Source: an uncultured delta proteobacterium (lineage in GTDB: Bacteria > Myxococcota_A > Polyangia > Fen-1088). From it: 64,000 nt of DNA. Numbering within the stretch: position 1 is the stretch's first letter; each line of letters begins with the position of its first letter. This document shows, one piece after another, positions 40,837-50,353 of this stretch. The notes under the pieces were generated by a model. The model was given only the letters and a program-made list of their open reading frames with translations, did not search any database and had not been told where the DNA came from. Made by a program: the position numbers and the translations under genes. The stretch covers positions 224,001 through 288,000 of the forward strand of contig CAVTRY010000014.1 in assembly GCA_963737265.1 (NCBI GenBank). The letters run 5' to 3'.

Positions 40837-42432
40837 ATGGCAGCCCAAGTCCCGTCGAGGAAGTATCGCATCGAGCGGTACCTCGCAGAAGGGGGCATGG
40901 GAGCGATCTATGTCGGCAAGAAAATCGGCCCGGGCGGCTTCGAAAAGGAGGTCGTTCTCAAGCAGCTCTTACCCGAGTTCACCAGCCGGCCGGAGTTCCG
41001 CGACCTGTTTTTTCGCGAGGCCAAGATCTCCGCGACCCTGGATCACCAGAACATCGTTCGCACCTTCGACCTGGTGAACTCGAACGACCGGCTCTTCATC
41101 GTCATGGAATACGTGCGCGGGGCCGACCTGCGCACGATCGCCTGGCGCGCGCGTCGACGAATGCCACTGTCGCCGCAGGCCATCCTGCACATCGCCATGG
41201 AAATTCTAGCCGGGCTCGCCTACGTGCATGGGCGCCGTTCGGCCACAGGCGATCCGCTCGGGATCATTCACCGCGATCTGTCGCCGTCCAATATTCTGTG
41301 CTCGGGCGAGGGCGAGGTGAAGCTGTCCGACTTCGGCATCGCCAAGGCGGTCACCTATTCGTCGGTCTTCTATCGCGTGCGCGGCAAGGTCGGCTACATG
41401 TCGCCCGAGATGGCGCGCAACCAGCCCCTCGACGCGCGCAGCGATCTGTTCTCGCTCGGGGTCAGCATCTATGAGACGCTGATCGGCGAACGCATCTACA
41501 GCGGCGATTTGAACACGCCGCCAGACAAGATATATGCCCAGGTGGTGCCTCGGCTCGACGCCAAGTGCGCGGGCCTTCCGTCCGAATTGCAGGGCGTGCT
41601 CAACCGCGCGCTCGCCATGGATCGGGAGATGCGCTATCCTGACGCCGAATCCTTCGCCGGCGCGCTTCGCCAGATCGCCCACGCGTACGGGCTCTTGTGC
41701 TCGGCGCCGCAGCTTGCGACGGAGTTGCGCGAGATCATGGGCCCGAACGCGGAGATGTGGCTCGCCGACGAGCGCGACCTAGCCCACCCGCGCAGCTCGC
41801 GTGCGCCGCACGCACCGGGCACCTTGACGGGCAAGGAGGCCGACTCGATCGTCGAATCGGGACTCACCAAGGAGGTCGGCGAGGAGGTCGATCTGGAGAA
41901 CCTGGCCACGCCGCCCGTCCGGACATCCGCTGCCATGCCCACGGCGAGCAATCGTTCGTCGGGATTCATGGCGGCGGCAAGGAGTCGTTCGTCGGGGTCA
42001 GTGGCAGCCGTGCCGCCCGCGGCTGACCCCATATCGGTCGCGGCGGCGGAAAGCTTAGCGTGGTCGCCGCAAATGGCATTCGAATTTCCGCCCATCCCGC
42101 CCCAAAAACCGGGCGGCGGGGTTGCCGCGATCAAGCGCTCTCGGCGCGGGCTCTGGCTGCTCGCTCTCCTCGTCGTCGCCATCCTGCTCGGATTTGCGGT
42201 CGTGCGCTTCGTCCTCGGTTCCAGCGCAATGACTCTTCCAATCGCGCCAGCCAACGTCTCGAATACCGAGGCAGAGCGCTGGCTTCGCCCGCAAACCAAG
42301 GCTTCACTCCAGGGTGCAGGTTGTCTGGCCGAACGCGGCGATTGGCTTCTCTGTGTCCCGAAGGAGATCGCTAATCGTGCAGCAATCGGGCCTCCGACGC
42401 AGAGCCGAGCGAGTCTGGCGCCTGGAGCCTGA
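40837..42432 (+). CDS. Hanks-type Ser/Thr protein kinase with a C-terminal TM helix
   Basis: LAEGGMG.IY, VVLK, HRDLSPSNIL, DFGIAK, GKVGYMSPE; TM near 42150-42215. Confidence 0.92.
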   Translation: MAAQVPSRKYRIERYLAEGGMGAIYVGKKIGPGGFEKEVVLKQLLPEFTSRPEFRDLFFREAKISATLDHQNIVRTFDLVNSNDRLFIVMEYVRGADLRTIAWRARRRMPLSPQAILHIAMEILAGLAYVHGRRSATGDPLGIIHRDLSPSNILCSGEGEVKLSDFGIAKAVTYSSVFYRVRGKVGYMSPEMARNQPLDARSDLFSLGVSIYETLIGERIYSGDLNTPPDKIYAQVVPRLDAKCAGLPSELQGVLNRALAMDREMRYPDAESFAGALRQIAHAYGLLCSAPQLATELREIMGPNAEMWLADERDLAHPRSSRAPHAPGTLTGKEADSIVESGLTKEVGEEVDLENLATPPVRTSAAMPTASNRSSGFMAAARSRSSGSVAAVPPAADPISVAAAESLAWSPQMAFEFPPIPPQKPGGGVAAIKRSRRGLWLLALLVVAILLGFAVVRFVLGSSAMTLPIAPANVSNTEAERWLRPQTKASLQGAGCLAERGDWLLCVPKEIANRAAIGPPTQSRASLAPGA

Positions 42433-42437
42433 AGCCT
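42299..42437. repeat. Second element bounded by the inverted heptamer motif (AGGCTTCA-CTCCAGG ... CCTGGAGCCTGAAGCCT)
   Basis: Same GGCTTCA/CCTGRAG units as 4643..4830, in inverted arrangement. Confidence 0.55.
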
Positions 42438-42507
42438 CATGAGACGGCCGCTGAAAGAACCGTCGCGCCATGCGAAGAATCTCGGATCTAGCAGAAGAGC
42501 GTCCGCC

Positions 42508-43858
42508 ATGGAAGGCATGACCGCTTCGATCACGCGACTCATCCCCAAGGACGCCGCGATTTTTCGCCAGTCGGGCCGGGGCCGCTTCATCGTCATTCGC
42601 GGACCGGATCGTGGCGAATCGCTGGTCGTGGAGCGAGGCCCCGTGACCTCGGCTCGGCTCGTCGGCGAGGTGCAGCCTGTCCGACCCGACCATTTCGCGC
42701 CGGCATCTTTCGGTCACCCTGGCCGCAAAGTGGCGTCGTCGTGCGCGATCTCGGCTCGACCAATGGTTCGTTCGTCGGCGGCGCGCGCTTTCAAGAATTG
42801 CTGCTCGGTTTCGGGTCCGAGATCCAGATCGGCCAAACCTTGCTCAAGTACCTGCCCGACGAGGAGCACGTCGATGTGGCGCCGGCGGCGAGCGAGCGCT
42901 TCGGCAACATGCTTGGCCGCGATTCCAAGATGCGCCAGGTGTTCAGGCTGCTCGAAGATGTCGCCGCGTACCGACGCGACGGTGCTGCTCGAAGGCGAGA
43001 CCGGCACCGGCAAGGAGCTTCTCGCCGAAGAAATCCATCGCCACAGCCCGCGCTCTGGCAAACCCTTCGTGGCGTTCCGACTGCGCCGCCGAGCCCAGGG
43101 ATACGATCGAATCGGCGCTGTTCGGTCACGTGCGCGGAGCCTTTCCCGGCGCCGTCGTCGATCGCCAGGGCGTCTTTGCCGAGGCCGACGGCGGCACGCT
43201 CTTCCTCGACGAGATCGGCGACCTTGCGCTCGACATGCAGCCCGCTCTCTTGCGTGCGCTCGACAAGCGCACCATTCGCGCCGTGGGCAGGATCGGCCAG
43301 CGCATGGTTTCGGTGCGCGTTGTGGCCGCGACCAAGCGCGACCTGCGAGCGGAAATGGCCACTCGGCGTTTTCGCGAGGATCTTTACTACCGCCTGGCCG
43401 TGATCCGCATCGCCGTGCCGCCCTTGCGCGAGCGCCCCGCCGACGTTGCCCTGCTGGCACAAAGCTTCATCGAGACGTGCGCTAGGCCGCCCGGCTTTTG
43501 CGTCCGCCAACCCGCCCTGGAGCGCCTCGCCCGCCTGCCCTGGCCCGGCAATGTCCGGCAACTGCGCAACGTGATGGAACACGCGTGTGCCGTTTCCCAC
43601 GGCAGCGAGCTCGACCTGACGGATTTTCTCGCCTCGGTCTCGCCCGCATCGCCCGGCATCGGCGCCGCCATCGCGCTCGACAAGCCGTTCAAGGAGGCCA
43701 AAGCCGCCGTCGTCGAGGAATTCGAGCGCGTCTACTTGAAAGCGCTGCTCGAACGCCACGGCGGCAATCTGTCCGCAGCGTCGCGCACCGCGGATTTAGA
43801 CCGCAAGCATGTGCGGGAACTGTTGCGCAAGCACGGATTGAGAGAGGAAACCCAATAG
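42508..43858 (+). CDS. FHA-domain sigma54-dependent enhancer-binding protein (several frameshifts)
   Basis: RDLGSTNGS (FHA), [50 protein letters not shown] and a Fis HTH, split over frames. Confidence 0.85.
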
Positions 43859-43989
43859 GCCGCCGCCCGAGCTCGCCGAGGTCCGGGGTGGTCTCCGGAA
43901 ATGGCTCGCGGGAATTCTGGCACAAGCTCGCCGAGATACTCAGGTTGCGTGCCTGAGCCGCGGTGCCTGGTTCAAAGGCGATGGCGCGA

Positions 43990-44185
43990 AATAGCCTTTC
44001 TGGCGCCAGGAATCGGCGTCTACGCCAATGACGTGGCAATGCTGGGAGAGCGACGGTGCAGGCGGCGCATGGGAAGACGGATCTCCATTGCTTGTACGCC
44101 AACTTGGTGGTGATGACGGTGGACTTGGATTCGTGGCGCCGGTTAATGATGTTGTAGAGGAGGTCAGCGGAGCGGCATCCGCGCA
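43990..44185 (-). pseudogene. istB: IS21-family IstB helper ATPase, C-terminal remnant
   Basis: ADLLYNIINRRHE.KSTVITT.L.YKQW..VFP, then QHCHVIGVDADSWR in a shifted frame. Confidence 0.8.
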
Positions 44186-44224
44186 CTGGCGCCCGGAGAA
44201 GGCACGGGCCGCCGAGGAGGTTGC

Positions 44225-44992
44225 TCAACTCCGCTTCACGGATGGCGTCACGACCGAATTGAAAGCTTGGTTGAACGTGGCGACTTCGATCGTCTTGGTG
44301 TTCAAATAGTCGTCGAAGTACGCCCAGGACGCCTGCTCGTCGAGGAGCACTTGGGCGGTGAAGACGCGGCTGAAGACTCCGTTTTTCGCGTGTTCGGACC
44401 CGAATAGGCGCAGGGAGACGACGTCGTGGATGCGCGGGTCGGGATAGAAATTGAACTTCAGCTTGAGCGGATCGAGGCCGTGCTCGTGCAACAGCAGATT
44501 CACGTGGGCGGCAGTGTGGAGCATGAATCGGTAAAGGCGCGTATTCGCCACCGGCGAGGCGAGCCGACACCACACGTGATATCCGCGGCCGCTGGCAACG
44601 ACGAGCGTAGCGCAGCCGGTATTGTTCAGTCTTTCCACGAGCGCACGCACGGCCAGCTCGACCTCGGGAATGACGACCGTGTTGTTCGTCGCGTGGTTGT
44701 TGTCCAAATTGAAGCAAAAGGTCGAGTTGATGCGCTTGTCGAAATAGAGGCAGACGTTGCACTCCTTCTCCACGTGAGCGCGAAGCAAATCGTCCATGCG
44801 CGACTCGGAAATATTCGTCAGCTTGTATTTGTGAAGCACGTTGGAAAGGGTGAGCTCGCCGTATTCCAGCTGCATGTCGCCCGCGAGCAGCCTTTCGAGA
44901 AAATCGAAGCCATAGCGTGACATCTCGACCTTCGCCCGGTCCATCGGCAGACCGCGGTAGAAGGCTTTGATCAGACTCACCCGCCAATCCAC
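44225..44992 (-). CDS. Archaeo-eukaryotic primase (AEP/PrimPol)-like domain protein with a divergent active site
   Basis: Motif I FCFNLD (NxD for DxD), motif II ASGRGYHVW, KFNFYP, SLRLFGS.H.K.G; spacing resembles TOTE/CAPP-type AEPs. Confidence 0.7.
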   Translation of the reverse strand: MDWRVSLIKAFYRGLPMDRAKVEMSRYGFDFLERLLAGDMQLEYGELTLSNVLHKYKLTNISESRMDDLLRAHVEKECNVCLYFDKRINSTFCFNLDNNHATNNTVVIPEVELAVRALVERLNNTGCATLVVASGRGYHVWCRLASPVANTRLYRFMLHTAAHVNLLLHEHGLDPLKLKFNFYPDPRIHDVVSLRLFGSEHAKNGVFSRVFTAQVLLDEQASWAYFDDYLNTKTIEVATFNQAFNSVVTPSVKRS

Positions 44993-45549
44993 GACCGGAC
45001 CTCGGTGAAAGTCTCGAACCCGCGCGCGCCAGCGCCCACGACGGCTCGATTCTGATCGTTGATTGGGTAGTACACCTTCACGCCATAGCGCCCGCCGTAC
45101 TCGATGTTGAACAGGTTGTCGTCGACGAGGATGTCAATGCCCCAGAGCTTGCAGAAAACGATCTTGTTTCCGGCTCTGAAGATTCGATCGAATGGAATGC
45201 CGTTTTCGTCGAGCCAGGTTTTCGTGTGCCGATAGGAGCTTCGCAGATCCCGGTGCGTGCAGATCACGATGCGCCAGCCTTCCCGCTTGAGCCACCGCAT
45301 GAAGTCCACGGCGTCGGCGCGCGCCTTGGCACGTCGATAGCACTCGAGATGAATCTTGGCTCGAAAAAACGAGAACTCGGTGCTGAGAAGATCTTCCACC
45401 TCGGTCGAGCCGTTTCGTATTCTTTGCAGGTACTGCTCGAAGACGGCGGGCGAGACTGCGAACTTTTCGTCGTACTCGAAGCGCGTGCTGCGCAGCGTTT
45501 CGGTGAAGTCATTCAGCGTGTCGTCCAAATCGACCGCAATCGTCTTCAC
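44977..45549 (-). CDS. HAD-superfamily 5'(3')-deoxyribonucleotidase (NT5C-like)
   Basis: IAVDLDDTL (motif I), ICTHR (II), NK (III), LVDDN (IV); overlaps the AEP gene by 16 nt. Confidence 0.85.
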   Translation of the reverse strand: MKTIAVDLDDTLNDFTETLRSTRFEYDEKFAVSPAVFEQYLQRIRNGSTEVEDLLSTEFSFFRAKIHLECYRRAKARADAVDFMRWLKREGWRIVICTHRDLRSSYRHTKTWLDENGIPFDRIFRAGNKIVFCKLWGIDILVDDNLFNIEYGGRYGVKVYYPINDQNRAVVGAGARGFETFTEVRSWIGG

Positions 45550-45629
45550 AGTGGCCGTGCTCCCGCGGCGGCCCGCCGCGCCCCGGCCTTGATGTTGCTG
45601 GCGCTTCGGCCGCTGCTGGTGATGTTCAT
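45546..45629 (-). CDS. 27-aa small ORF MNITSSGRSASNIKAGARRAAAGARPL, or the frameshifted N-terminus of the HAD gene
   Basis: GGAGG 5 nt before the ATG; TGA overlaps the HAD GTG start (GTGA). Confidence 0.45.
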   Translation of the reverse strand: MNITSSGRSASNIKAGARRAAAGARPL

Positions 45630-45851
45630 GGCGTCCTCCGAAAAGCTATCTTGTACCCAGGGGAAAACAAGCCAATCTTTGCGGGGGATGCCGCCAAGGA
45701 CGATGGTTGATGGATTTCTGGACAGCAAGGGTTCGATCACTACCCGAGATCCTGGGGAGGCTCGATGCGAAGGACACATCGCAGCCGAGTCGGCAGGAGC
45801 GGCGCCACACGCTCACCGTCGGTGTTACGACGCTCTATCGATCCAGCACGT

Positions 45852-47430
45852 TTACTGCACCATGAGGTACATCTCGCTGGCGGCGAGAACGAGGGCGCCG
45901 ACGCCGTAGTCGTGGGTCTCAGTGGCCGCGGCGGCCGCGGGTGAGCTTCCCGTGGCCTGAATGTAGCCGACCCGGCCCTGCGAATCCACGCAGCTCACAA
46001 GACCGTTCCAAGCCGCGACCACGACCGGCCGATAGGTTGCCTTGTCGAGCAATCCCTGGTTGATCCCGTAGGCGATGGCGTAGCTGATGAGGCCCGTGCC
46101 GCTGACCTCGGGATTGTCGTATTTCGTCGGGTGCGTGAGATCCGCGTGCCAGGTACCGTCGGCCTGTTGATAAGGCACGATGGCGGCAGCCATGGACTTG
46201 AGCAAGCTGACGTAGGCATCGTGGCTGGGATCGCTGGGTGGAAGGTATTGCAGGACACGCACGATGCCCGCCATGACCCAACCATTGCCGCGCGACCAGT
46301 AGACGGTTCCATTGACGAACGAGGAGTCCCGCCAAAACAACCCCGTCTTGGTGTCGAGGAGACCGACCAGCGTGGCTGACCACATGGTGTCGAGAAAACT
46401 GTAGTACGTGTTCTGTCCCGTGATCGTGCCTAAGCGAGAAACCACTCCGGGCGCCATGAACAGAGCATCGCACCACCACCAATCGTCGACATTCTGAACG
46501 ATTCCCGGCATCGGGCTCGCGACCATGGCGTCGATGCTGGTCTTGGTTTTCGCAACCATGGTCGTGTTGGCGGCGATGGGATTGGTCAGGTAGATGTCCT
46601 CGTAGACTTGGCCCGCGCACTGATTGTCGGCGCTTCGCGTGGGCGAGCCTAGCAACGTCCACCGGTTGGTCGTGGCCCACGCGGTGGCATCGCCGAGATA
46701 GGTCGAATCGGTGGTGGCCAGATAGGCGGCCATCACGCCGATGTAGAAGGTGGCCTCGGTCCATTTGTTGACCCAGGAGGGGATCCTCTGGCCCGAGCTG
46801 GATTTCATAGGGGATTACCTTCTTCAAGATGGCCAGAATGTCGGCGGCCGCGGGCAGCCCGGCCGTCGAGCCGCGCGCGCCCGAACTTCCGCCGGTACCG
46901 GTCGCGCCGCCCGAGCTTCCGCCGGTTCCAGTGGTGCCGCCCGTGAGCGTTGTCTGCCCACCCGTTCCCGGTGCGCCGCCGCCGCCGGTTGCGCCGCTCG
47001 CACCAGCCTTGCCGCCTGCGCCACCTCTGCCGATCGTGCTGCCCACGTTCCCGCCACTCGTGACGGAACCGCCGGAGCCCACAGAACCACCCGTACCTGA
47101 TTGGGTCGAGGTCCCAGAGTCAGCCACTCCGCCCGCGCCGCTGACACCACCCGAGCTGGAGCTTTCCCCCGTACCGATCACTCCGCCCGATCCCGTCGCG
47201 CCACCGCCTGACCGCGTCGCCCCGGTTCCGACCACGCCACCAACGACTGCGGTTTCGTTGTTGTCGACCGCAGCGTCGGCTGCTCCCGTGTTTTCCGTCC
47301 GATTCGAGGAACTACAGCCGATGGTCCAACCAGCCGTGAAGCAAGCCACAGCCAGCAAGACACGCAGAGTCGCCGATTGCCGTACCGAAGAGACCTCGCG
47401 AGCCCTCGCTACCTTGTCTTCTTTTGCCAT
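45852..47430 (-). CDS. GH105/GH88-family unsaturated glycoside hydrolase lipoprotein with a Gly-rich linker (frameshift near 46790)
   Basis: Lipobox TIGC, GGxxG linker; SADNQCAGQVY, WWWCDALFMAP, YWSRGNGWV, EVSGT, YGVGA. Confidence 0.85.
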
Positions 47431-47672
47431 GAGGATCCCTTCGTGAGCCCTCGCTACGTTGTCTTTTTATGAGGATTCCGGTGCGAGGTTTGGTTACTAT
47501 CATGGCCGACTCCATCGTGGTCCTTGCATGCAACCGCCTCTCGGGGCACGTTGGCTTGGGACGAGTAGCATTCCTCCCGCTTCACAACACCACGCCAGGT
47601 TTCCGGCGAGATAGATTGAAGTCGGCAGTCGATTGGGTCATCTGGTCATCGTCACGCAATTGTTGGTACTGG

Positions 47673-47798
47673 AGCGCTCACCCAAGCCCGCCTCAACTTC
47701 GCCCGCGCCCGCTACGAATACGCGCTTGCGCGCGTGAGCTTGGCTCGCGCGCCAGCCGAGTAGAGCACACAGCGCGCGGGTCATGGCGCGCGTTGACG
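47673..47798 (+). repeat. Displaced copy of the tolC 3' end plus downstream sequence (inverted relative to 21608..21734)
   Basis: Encodes ALTQARLNFARARYEYALARVSLARAPAE* versus tolC ALTQARLNFARARYEYALARMSLARALGE*; the non-coding tail also matches. Confidence 0.92.
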
Positions 47799-47810
47799 AA
47801 TCTCGGTTCC

Positions 47811-48238
47811 TCATCGAGATCGCCACTTTGGGTTGGCACCCATCTCCGTTCGCAACCCCTTTCGTACGGTCTTAATGCGCTCGAAGTCCTCATCGCTATG
47901 TAGAAGGGTGGCCTCGGCCTCGATGGCGTGGGCGGCGATATGGCAATCCACGCTGCTCCTGACGGTGAGCCCGCGACGGCGGCAGTCGAAAAAGATGCGG
48001 GCTGCTTCCCAATGCAGCGCCGCAGGATCCACCGGCACGGCGAGTTGCTGCAAAAACAGATGCGCGCGCAACAGCCGCCATTCCTTTTCGTCGTGCGCCC
48101 CCTGCATGACCTCTTGGCAACACACGAGGGGAATAGCGAATGACGTATCGTCCGCCTCTAGACGGGCAGGATTTCGGCAGCGGGGGTATTCCTTCCGCGA
48201 AGAAAATCGATCAGAACCGAGGTGTCGACCAGGATCAT
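47811..48238 (-). pseudogene. VapC PIN-domain toxin (frameshifted)
   Basis: MILVDTSVLIDF start at 48238; QEVMQG, VRSSVDCHIAA, LLHSDEDFERI. Confidence 0.82.
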
Positions 48239-48310
48239 CGGCGCGCGGACCGCGCCGCCTTGTAGTCGTAGCCTGGTGCAAACCGGATCTTGCCCCTAAG
48301 CTCGGCTGGG
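48235..48310 (-). pseudogene. 3' remnant of a VapB antitoxin
   Basis: ELRGKIRFAPGYDYKAAR* with an ATGA overlap onto the vapC start; no 5' part visible. Confidence 0.65.
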
Positions 48311-48377
48311 GCAAGCCGGTGAGTAGGGCACGCCAGGCGTCCAACAGGACACCGGGACCGCCCCCAGCGCTGGCTTA

Positions 48378-50111
48378 TCAAAGTGGCGGGTATGCGTTCT
48401 TCATCAGCTCCTGGAACTGTGCCGAAAACCACGCGCCGGACAGCGGTGCGTTTGGCAGTGCGCCGGACAAGTTGTTGCCGTTGCGGGCGTTGCCGGTGTA
48501 GGTCGGATCGCACATCCTGTCGAAGCCCTTGCCCTGGTCGTTCGCGATGAGCGAGCTGGCGCCGTCGGATTCGCCCGGCGGCTTGACCCAAACGTAGGCG
48601 TGGATGCCGTTGGCGCCGACGGCTTTGGGGCGTTCGCCAAGACCCGCGCCGCTTTGGTTGCACCAGTTGCCGAGGTGGATCCGTCGATCGATCCGCGACG
48701 CGTTGATCATGGTATTCACGTCGGTGGCTGTGCTTGCGGCGGTCGGCCGGCTCGCCCCGCCCCACCCGTTGCGGGAAGTGTCGATCAGCATGCCGATGTT
48801 GGAATTGAAACCAGCCGAGATCAGGCGCGCTCGAAATGCAACGGCGAAGCTCTGTTCGTCGACGTAGCTGTTCCAGTCGATCCACTTGGACTGCCGGGTC
48901 GCATCGGTCACTGTGATGAAGGGCTCGACCAAGGCCGAGTAGTTGGCGGTGTTGGTGATGAATCCCGTCACCGTATTGAAACCGCCAACCGCGCTCTTTG
49001 CCGCGGTCGCCATCAGATCGGCCGTCGCGCCGAAGTTGTCGTCCCAACCGATCCAACCGTGGTGTGCGGCGTCGATATAATTGTAGGTATTGGGAAGGGT
49101 GTGCAACTTGCCGAGCGCGTAGCCAATTCCAGCAACATAGTTGCCGTTGGCCTTCATCGTATCGCACATGGGGGTGGCGGTTGCCTTTCCGCCCGTGTTG
49201 GTGACGAGGTTGGGTAGCGAGTCGATCTCGATGATGTTGATGATGCGAAGGTTGATGTACTTCGCGTCGCTCATCAGGAGGGCGATGGGGTCGATGTACT
49301 CGGTCTTGTAGCGCGGTAGATCGGTCGGCCCCAATTCGCCGTTGGAGGCGAGCGCGGCGCAGTCACGGCCGGGCAAGTTGTAGATGACGAACTGGACGTA
49401 GCCTGCGCCCTGGGCAACCGCGGCGTCGAGGTGCGCGCGCAAACCCATGGTGGTGCTGTTACCGGCGATGGCGGCGATGCGATCGAGCCACACCGCCGTC
49501 GGGTTGTTCGACACCCGGCTGCCACCTGCCTCGGCGTCGGCCTTGGCTTTCCAGTCCGGGTTCACGTATCCCGTCACACCCTGGTAGGGATTGTCGAGGC
49601 GGGGAATGGGCGGGCCTGTGTAGGGTGTCACCGTGATGGGGGTGGCGCCGGTGCTTGTCGACGAGGTTCCGGTTGCAGAGGAAGTCGCGGTGGCGCTGCC
49701 CGTGCCAGCCATGGTTCGTGTGGCGACGCCTGTACCTGTGCCCGAACTGGTTTGCGTGACTCCCGGCGTGGTCACCGTGGAGACGAAGGTTCCCGTGGTC
49801 GTCACGGTTTCCGAATTGGTGACGGTTTGGATGTACGTGACCGTGGCCGAGGCCGTGACGGTGCCGGAGATAAGGCCGGTCACGACACCGCTGCCGGACG
49901 TCGTGGCGGTGCTGGTAAGGATCGCAGTGGCGCTCCCGGTGGCCACGGCGGTGACCGCACCCGGCGACGTACCGACGGTCGTAGCCGTTGGAGGCGAAGG
50001 TTTGGCTGCCGCTTGATTGGATTCGTCCTTCGAACAAGCCCCTAGCTGAAGGGCCAGCAAGAGGGTGAAGGGTGCTGTCCATCTCCAAAGTGCGTCTCTC
50101 GTGCTTCCCAT
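48378..50111 (-). CDS. GH6 cellobiohydrolase/endoglucanase lipoprotein with a Thr-rich linker
   Basis: Lipobox LGAC; PTAVWLD, VIYNLPGRDCAALASNGE, IEIDSLPNL, IDTSRNG, GNWCNQ, VWVKPPGESDG. Confidence 0.93.
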   Translation of the reverse strand: MGSTRDALWRWTAPFTLLLALQLGACSKDESNQAAAKPSPPTATTVGTSPGAVTAVATGSATAILTSTATTSGSGVVTGLISGTVTASATVTYIQTVTNSETVTTTGTFVSTVTTPGVTQTSSGTGTGVATRTMAGTGSATATSSATGTSSTSTGATPITVTPYTGPPIPRLDNPYQGVTGYVNPDWKAKADAEAGGSRVSNNPTAVWLDRIAAIAGNSTTMGLRAHLDAAVAQGAGYVQFVIYNLPGRDCAALASNGELGPTDLPRYKTEYIDPIALLMSDAKYINLRIINIIEIDSLPNLVTNTGGKATATPMCDTMKANGNYVAGIGYALGKLHTLPNTYNYIDAAHHGWIGWDDNFGATADLMATAAKSAVGGFNTVTGFITNTANYSALVEPFITVTDATRQSKWIDWNSYVDEQSFAVAFRARLISAGFNSNIGMLIDTSRNGWGGASRPTAASTATDVNTMINASRIDRRIHLGNWCNQSGAGLGERPKAVGANGIHAYVWVKPPGESDGASSLIANDQGKGFDRMCDPTYTGNARNGNNLSGALPNAPLSGAWFSAQFQELMKNAYPPL

Positions 50112-50353
50112 GAGTTGCCTTTCTTCGCCGGTTGGGAGCAAGCGAGACGCATTGAGAACACCAATCCCTTGAACGGCACGCCCCAGCACACTGAATCCCC
50201 AACACTGGCGGTTCGGAAAAGCGGGATCGGGCTCGGTTGTCTCGGCTGCTCTGTGTGGTTTCTATTCCCACACGCGGAATTCTGGATACTAAATTCGACA
50301 GTCGCGGCGCGAAAAAGCTCATCGCCAAAACCGAGGCGCCCGAGCGCCGGTGC

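Follow-up and report, generated by a model that had tools for sequence, protein, structure and literature searches.

To our knowledge, primase-polymerases (Prim-Pols) of the archaeo-eukaryotic primase (AEP) superfamily have been described as enzymes of priming, as repair polymerases and as parts of CRISPR and other conflict systems, and always as two-metal nucleotidyl transferases. Here we analyze a gene pair in a 64-kb stretch of DNA from an uncultured delta proteobacterium (the window, meaning the whole stretch at its full length), in which a stand-alone protein of the AEP fold with an altered active site is encoded together with a phosphatase of the haloacid dehalogenase (HAD) superfamily. 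The closest described protein is CAPP of Marinitoga sp. 1137 (structures 7nqd and 7p9j), presented as an active polymerase and primase (PMC8211822; PMC10345425), and as a large protein that combines TPR and other domains and is encoded beside cas genes (PMC8211822). AEP proteins are recognized by three motifs, defined as hhhDhD/E for motif I (PMC10345425), sxH for motif II and hD/E for motif III. In the account of PMC10345425, E260 of CAPP is named with the catalytic metal, and mutation of Prim-Pol motif I or III abolishes activity; the CAPP D177A+D179A mutant is described as inactive in PMC8211822. The nearest sequence family, TOTE, takes its name from a conflict system that is defined by TPR, OB, TBP and an effector (bioRxiv 10.1101/2025.09.15.676423).

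Both genes of the pair lie on the minus strand (positions are given in window numbering throughout). The HAD-superfamily gene occupies 44977..45549 (190 aa, GTG start) and the AEP gene 44225..44992 (255 aa, GTG start), and the 16-nt overlap between the HAD stop and the AEP start (44977..44992, minus strand, GTGGATTGGCGGGTGA), which had been claimed in a sequence-only reading of this DNA, was confirmed and suggests translational coupling. The sequence GGGAG is found 10-14 nt ahead of the HAD start, and GAGG 7-10 nt ahead of the AEP start. The outer boundary of 45629 given in that reading did not hold, since it marks an ATG that is out of frame with the HAD gene and opens a frame stopping at 45546, and HAD homologues begin at the M-K-T-I-A-V of 45549.

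The motifs of the AEP protein read FCFNLDNNH, SGRGYHVW, KFNFYP and SLRLFGSEHAKNG. At motif I (44702..44710, minus strand), N95-L-D97 replaces D-x-D and aligns to the DxD of relatives and to D177/D179 of CAPP, with N95 equivalent to D177 and D97 to D179, and the string FCFNLD departs from the motif definition. At the acidic site of motif III the protein carries Asn181 (44450..44452, minus strand), which aligns to E260 in the VEIFP of CAPP; CAPP numbering was taken from a printed alignment with an offset of 108, and N181 of FNFYP, like E260, stands three residues ahead of the Pro. Both residues are encoded by AAT (Asn95, 44710-44708; Asn181, 44452-44450). Motif II is kept as S134-G-R-G-Y-H139 (44576..44593, minus strand), which aligns to GNRGYH of CAPP and supplies the sxH as G137-Y-H139, and so is S193-L-R-L-F-G-S-E-H201-A-K203 (44384..44416, minus strand), the counterpart of IKVPLGVHKK in CAPP. 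Thus the NLD of motif I and the Asn at the acidic position of KFNFYP, both of which had been picked out from the sequence, were confirmed, and by alignment the AEP protein appears to have lost two of its three metal-binding carboxylates.

Conservation of these residues was examined in a core family of 49 sequences and a wide family of 26 sequences with ∼30% identity. Invariant positions in the core are N95, D97, N98, N99, S134-G-R-G, H139, W141, R143, K179, N181, S193-L-R, F197, G198 and H201. The wide family keeps N95, D97, G135, G137, H139, S193, R195 and a few others without exception, and G198 and H201 nearly so, while position 181 is variable and never acidic (S, C, T, I, L, Y, V or G). 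Accordingly, the proposal that both Asn residues might be conserved stands in part: both are invariant in the core, and N95 is so in the wide family as well, but Asn181 is lost there. Motif I reads N.D in 118 of 119 loci, and together with the conservation of N95 and N181 this excludes the possibility, raised in the sequence-only reading, that the Asn codons are read errors. The altered motifs are a family trait, in which the motif III acid is gone and the first acid of motif I is Asn throughout.

Despite these changes the fold is that of an AEP, as had been proposed from the motif layout. A structure model built with 49 homologues (predicted local distance difference test, pLDDT, 92.0; predicted TM score 0.89) contains the N-terminal alpha-beta unit and the RRM-like unit of the superfamily, and has CAPP chain 7nqd_A as its best structural match (Z 21.0, root-mean-square deviation 2.9 over 200 residues; Foldseek E 2.7e-9, TM 0.67/0.77), followed in a lower tier by Prim-PolC (Z 13.9), the LigD polymerase domain PolDom (13.5), and eukaryotic and archaeal PriS and RepB' (8.7-12). 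Direct sequence matches are weak, with E 0.023 to Pfam AEP-TOTE (14.7 bits, cut-off 27) and E 0.012 to NCBIfam PrimPol_Msp (14.2 bits, cut-off 200). Because the family profile gave zero matches to PDB sequences at E<=10, the link to CAPP is reached only through structure and through relatives that retain DxD, the NxD family matching these relatives with an hhalign probability of 99.6 (E 1.6e-24, 155 columns) and the relatives matching the CAPP chain at E 8.8e-17. Taken with the Pfam matches of the wider family, these comparisons place the protein in the AEP superfamily by descent, on the CAPP/TOTE branch.

The window protein and CAPP share the fold over the whole AEP protein at ∼12% identity, with an N-terminal H, RGYH(V/I)W, a (V/F)x(I/F)(F/Y)P strand and (K/R)h(P/F)xGxHxK as common landmarks, and differ in D177/D179 and E260 against N95/D97 and N181. 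They also differ in setting: unlike multidomain CAPP, the window protein is a 255-aa stand-alone with a HAD partner, and no cas gene was present among 125 neighboring open reading frames (ORFs) scanned at 38 loci (up to two gene-like ORFs per side; 11 of the 136 were dropped for a size limit). TOTE is nearer in sequence, since 22 of the 26 wide-family members match it (best E 3e-7) and the nearest named ESM Atlas clusters carry this family, but the partners that define that system are missing, with no TPR, OB-fold/CSD or TBP gene linked in the clustering of 40 loci or among the 125 neighbor ORFs. As had been noted from the sequence, the protein has no primase C-terminal, helicase or TPR domain; it is a single domain, and a search for longer versions yielded only one, a fusion to the HAD protein. 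Long AEP ORFs that seemed to carry extra domains (L008, L015, L018 and others) proved to be early in-frame starts inside the HAD gene.

The closest catalytically canonical homologues are five DxD relatives (P0180, P0183, P0188, P0192 and P0193; 450-615 aa), which keep DxD and an acidic motif III, have a basic AEP part (pI ∼9), and extend by a C-terminal region of ∼250 aa with weak winged-helix matches (2d1h, E 0.0073; ArsR, E 0.11). These relatives may be primase-polymerases of unstudied mobile elements. The NxD proteins are close to neutral, with a median pI of 6.95 in the core (49 sequences) and 6.69 in the wide family (26), against ∼9 for the AEP part of 7 of 8 DxD relatives. A precedent for an accessory role of the fold is PriX, an archaeal AEP-like subunit without the catalytic triad; PriX works inside a primase, whereas the window protein is paired with a phosphatase and retains motif II and one of the motif I Asp residues. 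Literature searches, with supplements and most subscription journals outside their scope, found no description of the HAD-AEP pair or of an NxD AEP clade; for the pair this agrees with the sequence-only reading, which knew of no such system.

Linkage of the two genes was evaluated in 40 genome loci, taken from one-genome-per-species contigs and including one (L039) cut by a contig end, and in 80 metagenome loci retrieved with the divergent subgroup as query. The HAD gene lies directly upstream in 38 of the 40 genome loci (38 of 39 informative) and in 76 of the 80 metagenome loci (76 of 78 informative, two being cut by contig ends), and it is still upstream in the four most divergent loci (L058-L061), whose AEP proteins are 34-36% identical to that of the window. 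The overlap measures 16 nt in 97 of 107 loci where it could be determined. Conservation of the HAD neighbor had been put forward as a check on the pairing, with DxD homologues unlinked to a HAD gene as the outcome that would speak against it; instead, with N.D in all but one of 119 loci, the HAD gene is upstream nearly always. In all, the homologues form 369 clusters at 90% identity (E<=1e-3), and a profile search of 1.84 billion representatives gave 75 clusters at 50% identity, of which the distant ones are the 450-615-aa proteins that keep DxD. More than 110 independent loci carry the two genes together; therefore, the pair is not a chance arrangement. No third conserved gene emerged from all-against-all ORF clustering of the 40 loci, which returned only the two genes of the pair, their shadow ORFs, and generic kinase and regulator clusters.

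The two genes are also inherited together. AEP and HAD trees built from the same 32 loci have well-supported clades in common, and in one protein (P0196, from L073, 476 aa) a complete HAD is joined in frame to the AEP by a linker of ∼30 residues. The motif III position of P0196 is Ser, not Asn. Three other apparent fusions (P0061, P0128 and P0072), in which the HAD loses its C-terminal motifs before the AEP frame in a frameshift-like manner, were set aside.

The HAD protein is an intact, capped HAD phosphatase. It matches Pfam Hydrolase (PF00702) at E 5.6e-6 (27.3 bits, cut-off 26.4), and all four HAD motifs that had been read in it, DxDx(T/V), T/S, K and (D/E)D, are present; motif I, D7-L-D9-D-T11 (45517..45531, minus strand), supplies the nucleophile and the acid/base Asp, and D7, D9, T98, K129 and D143 are invariant in 34 aligned homologues, with D144 nearly so. 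In the structure model (pLDDT 92.4), residues 15-89, between motifs I and II, form a helical cap. The model is most similar to 3bwv of S. epidermidis, an NT5C-like, deoxyribonucleotidase-like protein (Z 15.5, 21% identity), followed by GmhB (13.9), many other HADs (12-13.4) and human cdN (6g2n, 13.0). The claim that the protein is of NT5C type was supported only in part: 3bwv is the best structure, and the C1-capped architecture is common to 3bwv, cdN and the window protein, but the lead of 3bwv over unrelated HADs is just 1.6 Z, and only 3 of 34 family members match Pfam NT5C (PF06941), with a best E of 3.4e-4 that is below reliable levels. The motif I context, D-x-D-x-(T/V)-L-N-x-F, resembles the NT5C signature. 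A nucleotidase-like enzyme, closest to NT5C-like nucleotidases, is our best guess, though not a secure one; an NT5C enzyme with an AEP partner did not turn up in the literature searches.

The HAD matches also bear on the idea that the pair heals nucleic acid ends, the AEP binding a DNA or RNA end or gap in the manner of the LigD polymerase domain and the HAD stripping a terminal phosphate as the T4 Pnkp phosphatase does. The best PHROG match of the HAD is phrog_415, named polynucleotide kinase (E 4.6e-14), the phosphatase of T4 Pnkp is among its structural matches (Z 11.5, ranked below 46 other entries), LigD/PolDom falls in the second tier of AEP matches (Z 13.5-13.9), and repair-related neighbors were seen at single loci (DNA alkylation repair, L006; a UvrD-nuclease, L019; an XPB-like helicase, L030; topoisomerase IB, L035). 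HADs that act on macromolecules are typically capless. The phosphatases of polynucleotide kinase-phosphatases lack a cap and usually come with a kinase domain, whereas here there is a large helical cap and no linked kinase gene; a linked ligase or Ku gene was likewise absent from the 40 clustered loci and the 125 neighbor ORFs. Pfam HAD_PNKP is matched by only 2 of 34 members (best E 0.011), and the AEP, being near neutral, lacks the basic charge of its DNA-binding relatives. Because of the HAD cap and the AEP charge in particular, we regard end healing as very improbable.

To evaluate physical association, the structure of the AEP-HAD complex was predicted, as had been suggested in the sequence-only reading. 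The prediction scored 0.86, compared with 0.00 for the best of three controls. Of 80 solved complexes, 58 attained this mark, as did 2 of 110 mismatched pairs; because custom alignments were used, these counts are approximate. Runs agreed in at least 91% of contacts, with partner pLDDT of at least 89. In the predicted interface, AEP strand 42-47 pairs with HAD edge strand 122-128, and further contacts involve AEP residues 27-29, 99-101, 176-179 and 191-192 and HAD cap residues 51-57. Many of the residues in this interface are invariant or nearly so, among them G28, F29, Y44-L47, N99 and K179 of the AEP, and their use in the predicted contact would explain why. The pair is probably one complex, and the predicted structure and the natural fusion support the earlier suggestion of a coupling between AEP and HAD, in the form of a physical link that could permit control.

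An interface that adjoins motif I (residues 99-101) and K179 would also suit hand-over of a product, raising the possibility that the AEP uses its altered, Asn-containing site for some nucleotidyl transfer other than templated polymerization, making for example a dinucleotide or nucleotide conjugate, and that the HAD removes a phosphate from the product. Pairs of a synthase and a HAD phosphatase are known from the sucrose-phosphate and trehalose-phosphate pathways. Such a division of labor is consistent with a position 95 that is invariably Asn, rather than merely non-acidic, with the retention of D97, H139, R195 and H201, and with strictly conserved gene order and overlap. However, only one of the three metal ligands is left, many wide-family members have a hydrophobic or small residue at position 181, no precedent for this chemistry in an AEP was found in the literature searches, and in the Prim-Pols whose study is described in PMC8211822 and PMC10345425, mutating these residues abolishes activity. 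We therefore consider a synthase-phosphatase pair unlikely, although among mechanisms it is the chief alternative to the model that follows.

The reading that we tentatively prefer, at a little short of even confidence, is a two-subunit, nucleotide-directed phosphatase in which the AEP, holding a nucleotide-like ligand, would be the specificity or regulatory subunit. Under this model the HAD and AEP proteins would be two subunits of one enzyme, with the HAD as catalyst, a C1-capped phosphomonoesterase that, because it is capped, would act on small phosphorylated molecules. Its substrate would most likely be a nucleoside monophosphate or similar nucleotide-like compound, because the nearest structures are NT5C-like (deoxy)nucleotidases. 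The AEP would have descended from CAPP/TOTE-type primase-polymerases and most likely no longer makes nucleic acid, because it retains only one of three metal ligands, is near neutral in charge and lacks accessory domains. It would keep a nucleotide-binding pocket around the motif II His and R195/H201/K203, bind either a nucleotide or nucleic acid of very short length, and dock against the HAD at its edge strand and cap. Candidate biological roles are the clearing of aberrant or toxic nucleotides, or a part in conflict.

Several points weigh against this model. Asn can ligate divalent metals. With D97, H139, R195 and H201 kept, the AEP may still perform some catalysis, and the strict invariance of N95 could reflect an active role for that residue. 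The complex is a prediction, not a measurement. Three loci, one from a genome (L009) and two from metagenomes (L085 and L135), have the AEP gene and no HAD gene, so that the AEP can persist alone. Finally, the NT5C assignment is weak, given the 1.6 Z lead of 3bwv, the 3 of 34 members matching Pfam NT5C, and the match to phrog_415 at 4.6e-14.

A variant that takes up the first of these points is that the Asn site has been re-tooled for single-metal binding of nucleoside triphosphates, and that the AEP serves either as a ligand-gated switch of the phosphatase or as a non-polymerase nucleotidyl catalyst feeding the HAD. We hold this to be a minority possibility, with perhaps one chance in several. 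If true, the pair would be a hitherto unrecognized type of nucleotide-based system with two components, serving in conflict or in the removal of toxic nucleotides, and it would be the first instance in which a primase-polymerase fold has been co-opted to partner a small-molecule phosphatase. If, as in the two-subunit phosphatase that we prefer, the AEP is a nucleotide-binding specificity or regulatory subunit, the primase fold would be put to a new use and regulated nucleotidases would gain a new type; a catalytic AEP would mean chemistry new to the fold. The clade is compact, with hundreds of sequences in four bacterial phyla, strong selection maintains its altered triad, and overlap, co-inheritance, natural fusion and predicted interface tie it to a putative small-molecule phosphatase. 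The pair is small and easily expressed, and one of its hosts, Sporomusa silvacetica DSM 10669 (L037), is a cultured strain, which makes these ideas directly testable.

By deposited names, the hosts of the 40 genome loci comprise 20 Verrucomicrobiota (mostly Opitutaceae), 9 Bacillota (including Desulfosporosinus, Sporomusa and Pelosinus), 6 Myxococcota and 5 Planctomycetota, and are largely soil and wetland metagenome-assembled genomes (MAGs). In the genus of the window, 3 of 12 other species carry the pair, and it was found in 0 of 48 further relatives searched. In both trees, Planctomycetota copies nest in an Opitutaceae clade and Polyangiaceae group with Verrucomicrobiota (support 97-100), a pattern that indicates transfer between phyla. 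Identity across phyla is 56-65%, an unusually high conservation. The cassette is accessory and horizontally mobile as a unit, among bacteria of soil and peat. Two MAGs, a Planctomycetia MAG and Desulfosporosinus sp. SbF1, have two copies of the pair on separate contigs (L005 with L007, and L003 with L019), and the HAD gene of L019 is broken in two pieces.

The surroundings of the window pair agree with an accessory location. In five same-genus genomes, gene order is common up to ∼43870, at the end of a sigma-54 activator gene, and in none of them beyond it; therefore, the HAD-AEP pair sits in a non-syntenic, accessory stretch, as had been noted from the sequence. G+C content is 0.58 over 44500-45499, compared with 0.63-0.70 in most flanking 500-nt segments, bearing out the impression that the genes are AT-rich. 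The istB remnant that had been noted next to the pair was also found: the C-terminal part of an IS21-type gene lies directly downstream of the AEP stop at approximately 44042..44168 (minus strand; Pfam IstB_IS21, E 1e-4, profile positions 171-212 of 238), the match covering residues 273-314 of the frame 43689..44987. It is a neighbor, outside the HAD-AEP module. A far insertion boundary was not found, since sequence past ∼43870 in genomes G001 and G010 matches nothing else in the window. Repeats and promoter-like or terminator-like sites flanking the pair did not rise above chance, and an Rfam scan of 42000-48000 gave zero matches at E<=0.1.

Mobility of this kind is compatible with the defense role suggested in the sequence-only reading, for example anti-phage nucleotide depletion, in which the AEP would sense a phage nucleic acid or nucleotide and release the nucleotidase, draining the (deoxy)nucleoside monophosphate pool. 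The patchy distribution within the genus and among its relatives, the cross-phylum transfer, the G+C content below the backbone, the adjoining insertion sequence remnant, the second copies in some MAGs, a nearest Pfam family named after a conflict system and a predicted regulatory heterodimer all fit, as does the presence of an integrase (L008) or transposase (L037) among the neighbors at 2 of 38 loci. Nevertheless, zero PADLOC-DB 2.0 families matched either protein at E<=1, an IMG/VR scan gave 31 pattern matches and zero relatives, and tblastn against plasmid and phage collections gave zero matches. Pfam neighbors are varied and ordinary, mostly metabolic and regulatory (histidine kinases, chemotaxis proteins, sugar and amino-acid enzymes, ribosomal proteins and transporters). 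Although 19 of the 125 neighbor ORFs touch PADLOC models, nearly all do so through generic MotB, receiver, kinase, methyltransferase or AAA+ domains, and plausible defense neighbors are confined to ∼3 loci (PDC-S01 in L036, a PbeA-like protein in L030 and the UvrD-nuclease in L019). Enrichment near defense islands, which had been offered as a check and was approximated here with two neighbors per side, crude gene calls and no formal control, was not apparent in the 38 loci. The unusually high conservation across phyla also counts against this reading, and a phosphatase acting on monophosphates would be an indirect means of depleting deoxynucleoside triphosphates. A defense role is thus possible but unsupported, and we give the nucleotide-depletion scheme a low probability.

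In Sporomusa sp. KB1, the PDC-S01 candidate of PADLOC is a DUF4143 AAA ATPase that comes after the HAD-AEP pair (L036:9050-10396, full length, E 1.2e-190) and is followed by a trypsin-like protease (L036:10558-11631); the sister strain L037 has a DDE transposase in that place.

A different possibility for the role of the pair is detoxification, in which the AEP recognizes a non-canonical or toxic nucleotide that its partner dephosphorylates and, in one lineage, also acetylates. HAD nucleotidases are house-cleaning enzymes, and GNATs of the RimL/MccE type detoxify aminoacyl-nucleotide antibiotics. In the lineage concerned, which gives this reading a slight hint, the NxD AEP is fused to a C-terminal Acetyltransf_3 domain, once with the HAD (P0047, L095) and once without (L085). 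Neighbors of the pair are ordinary chromosomal genes, with MatE efflux and glyoxalase/bleomycin-resistance genes present at L033 and L035, and soil and wetland hosts would suit such a function. Against it, the GNAT fusion is a single evolutionary event, and the resistance-like neighbors are confined to two related loci; we consider detoxification improbable as a specific role, at much the same level as nucleotide depletion. Because it concerns role, it is compatible with a two-subunit phosphatase and not opposed to it.

The acetyltransferase of these fusions (L085:4001-5338 and P0047 of L095) is of the RimJ/RimL type (GNAT, E ∼1e-27). The two proteins are 89% identical; the upstream HAD gene is kept in L095 and absent in L085, which sits after truA-rplM-rpsI.

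The sigma-54 activator gene (42439..43858, plus strand) is seemingly split over two frames, ORF 42439..43485 holding the start of Sigma54_activat and ORF 43130..43858 the remainder with the lid and HTH_8, a pattern that suggests a frameshift, whether genuine or introduced during assembly. Upstream of the pair lies a GH88 glycoside hydrolase gene, identified by Pfam, whose ORF (45852..46808, minus strand) is preceded in another frame by an ORF starting from 47430 that reads as a lipoprotein signal followed by a Gly/Ser/Thr-rich linker, so that 45852..47430 (minus strand) is probably a single gene with a frameshift near 46810-46830. The two split genes suggest indel errors in the assembly. Farther upstream, a PIN-domain ORF (47814..48344, minus strand, E 7.4e-8) adjoins a GH6 cellulase-like gene (48381..50189, minus strand, E 8.3e-89), and the DNA at ∼47795-48305 is 89% identical to a site in a same-genus genome (G008:C8) that lacks synteny with the rest.

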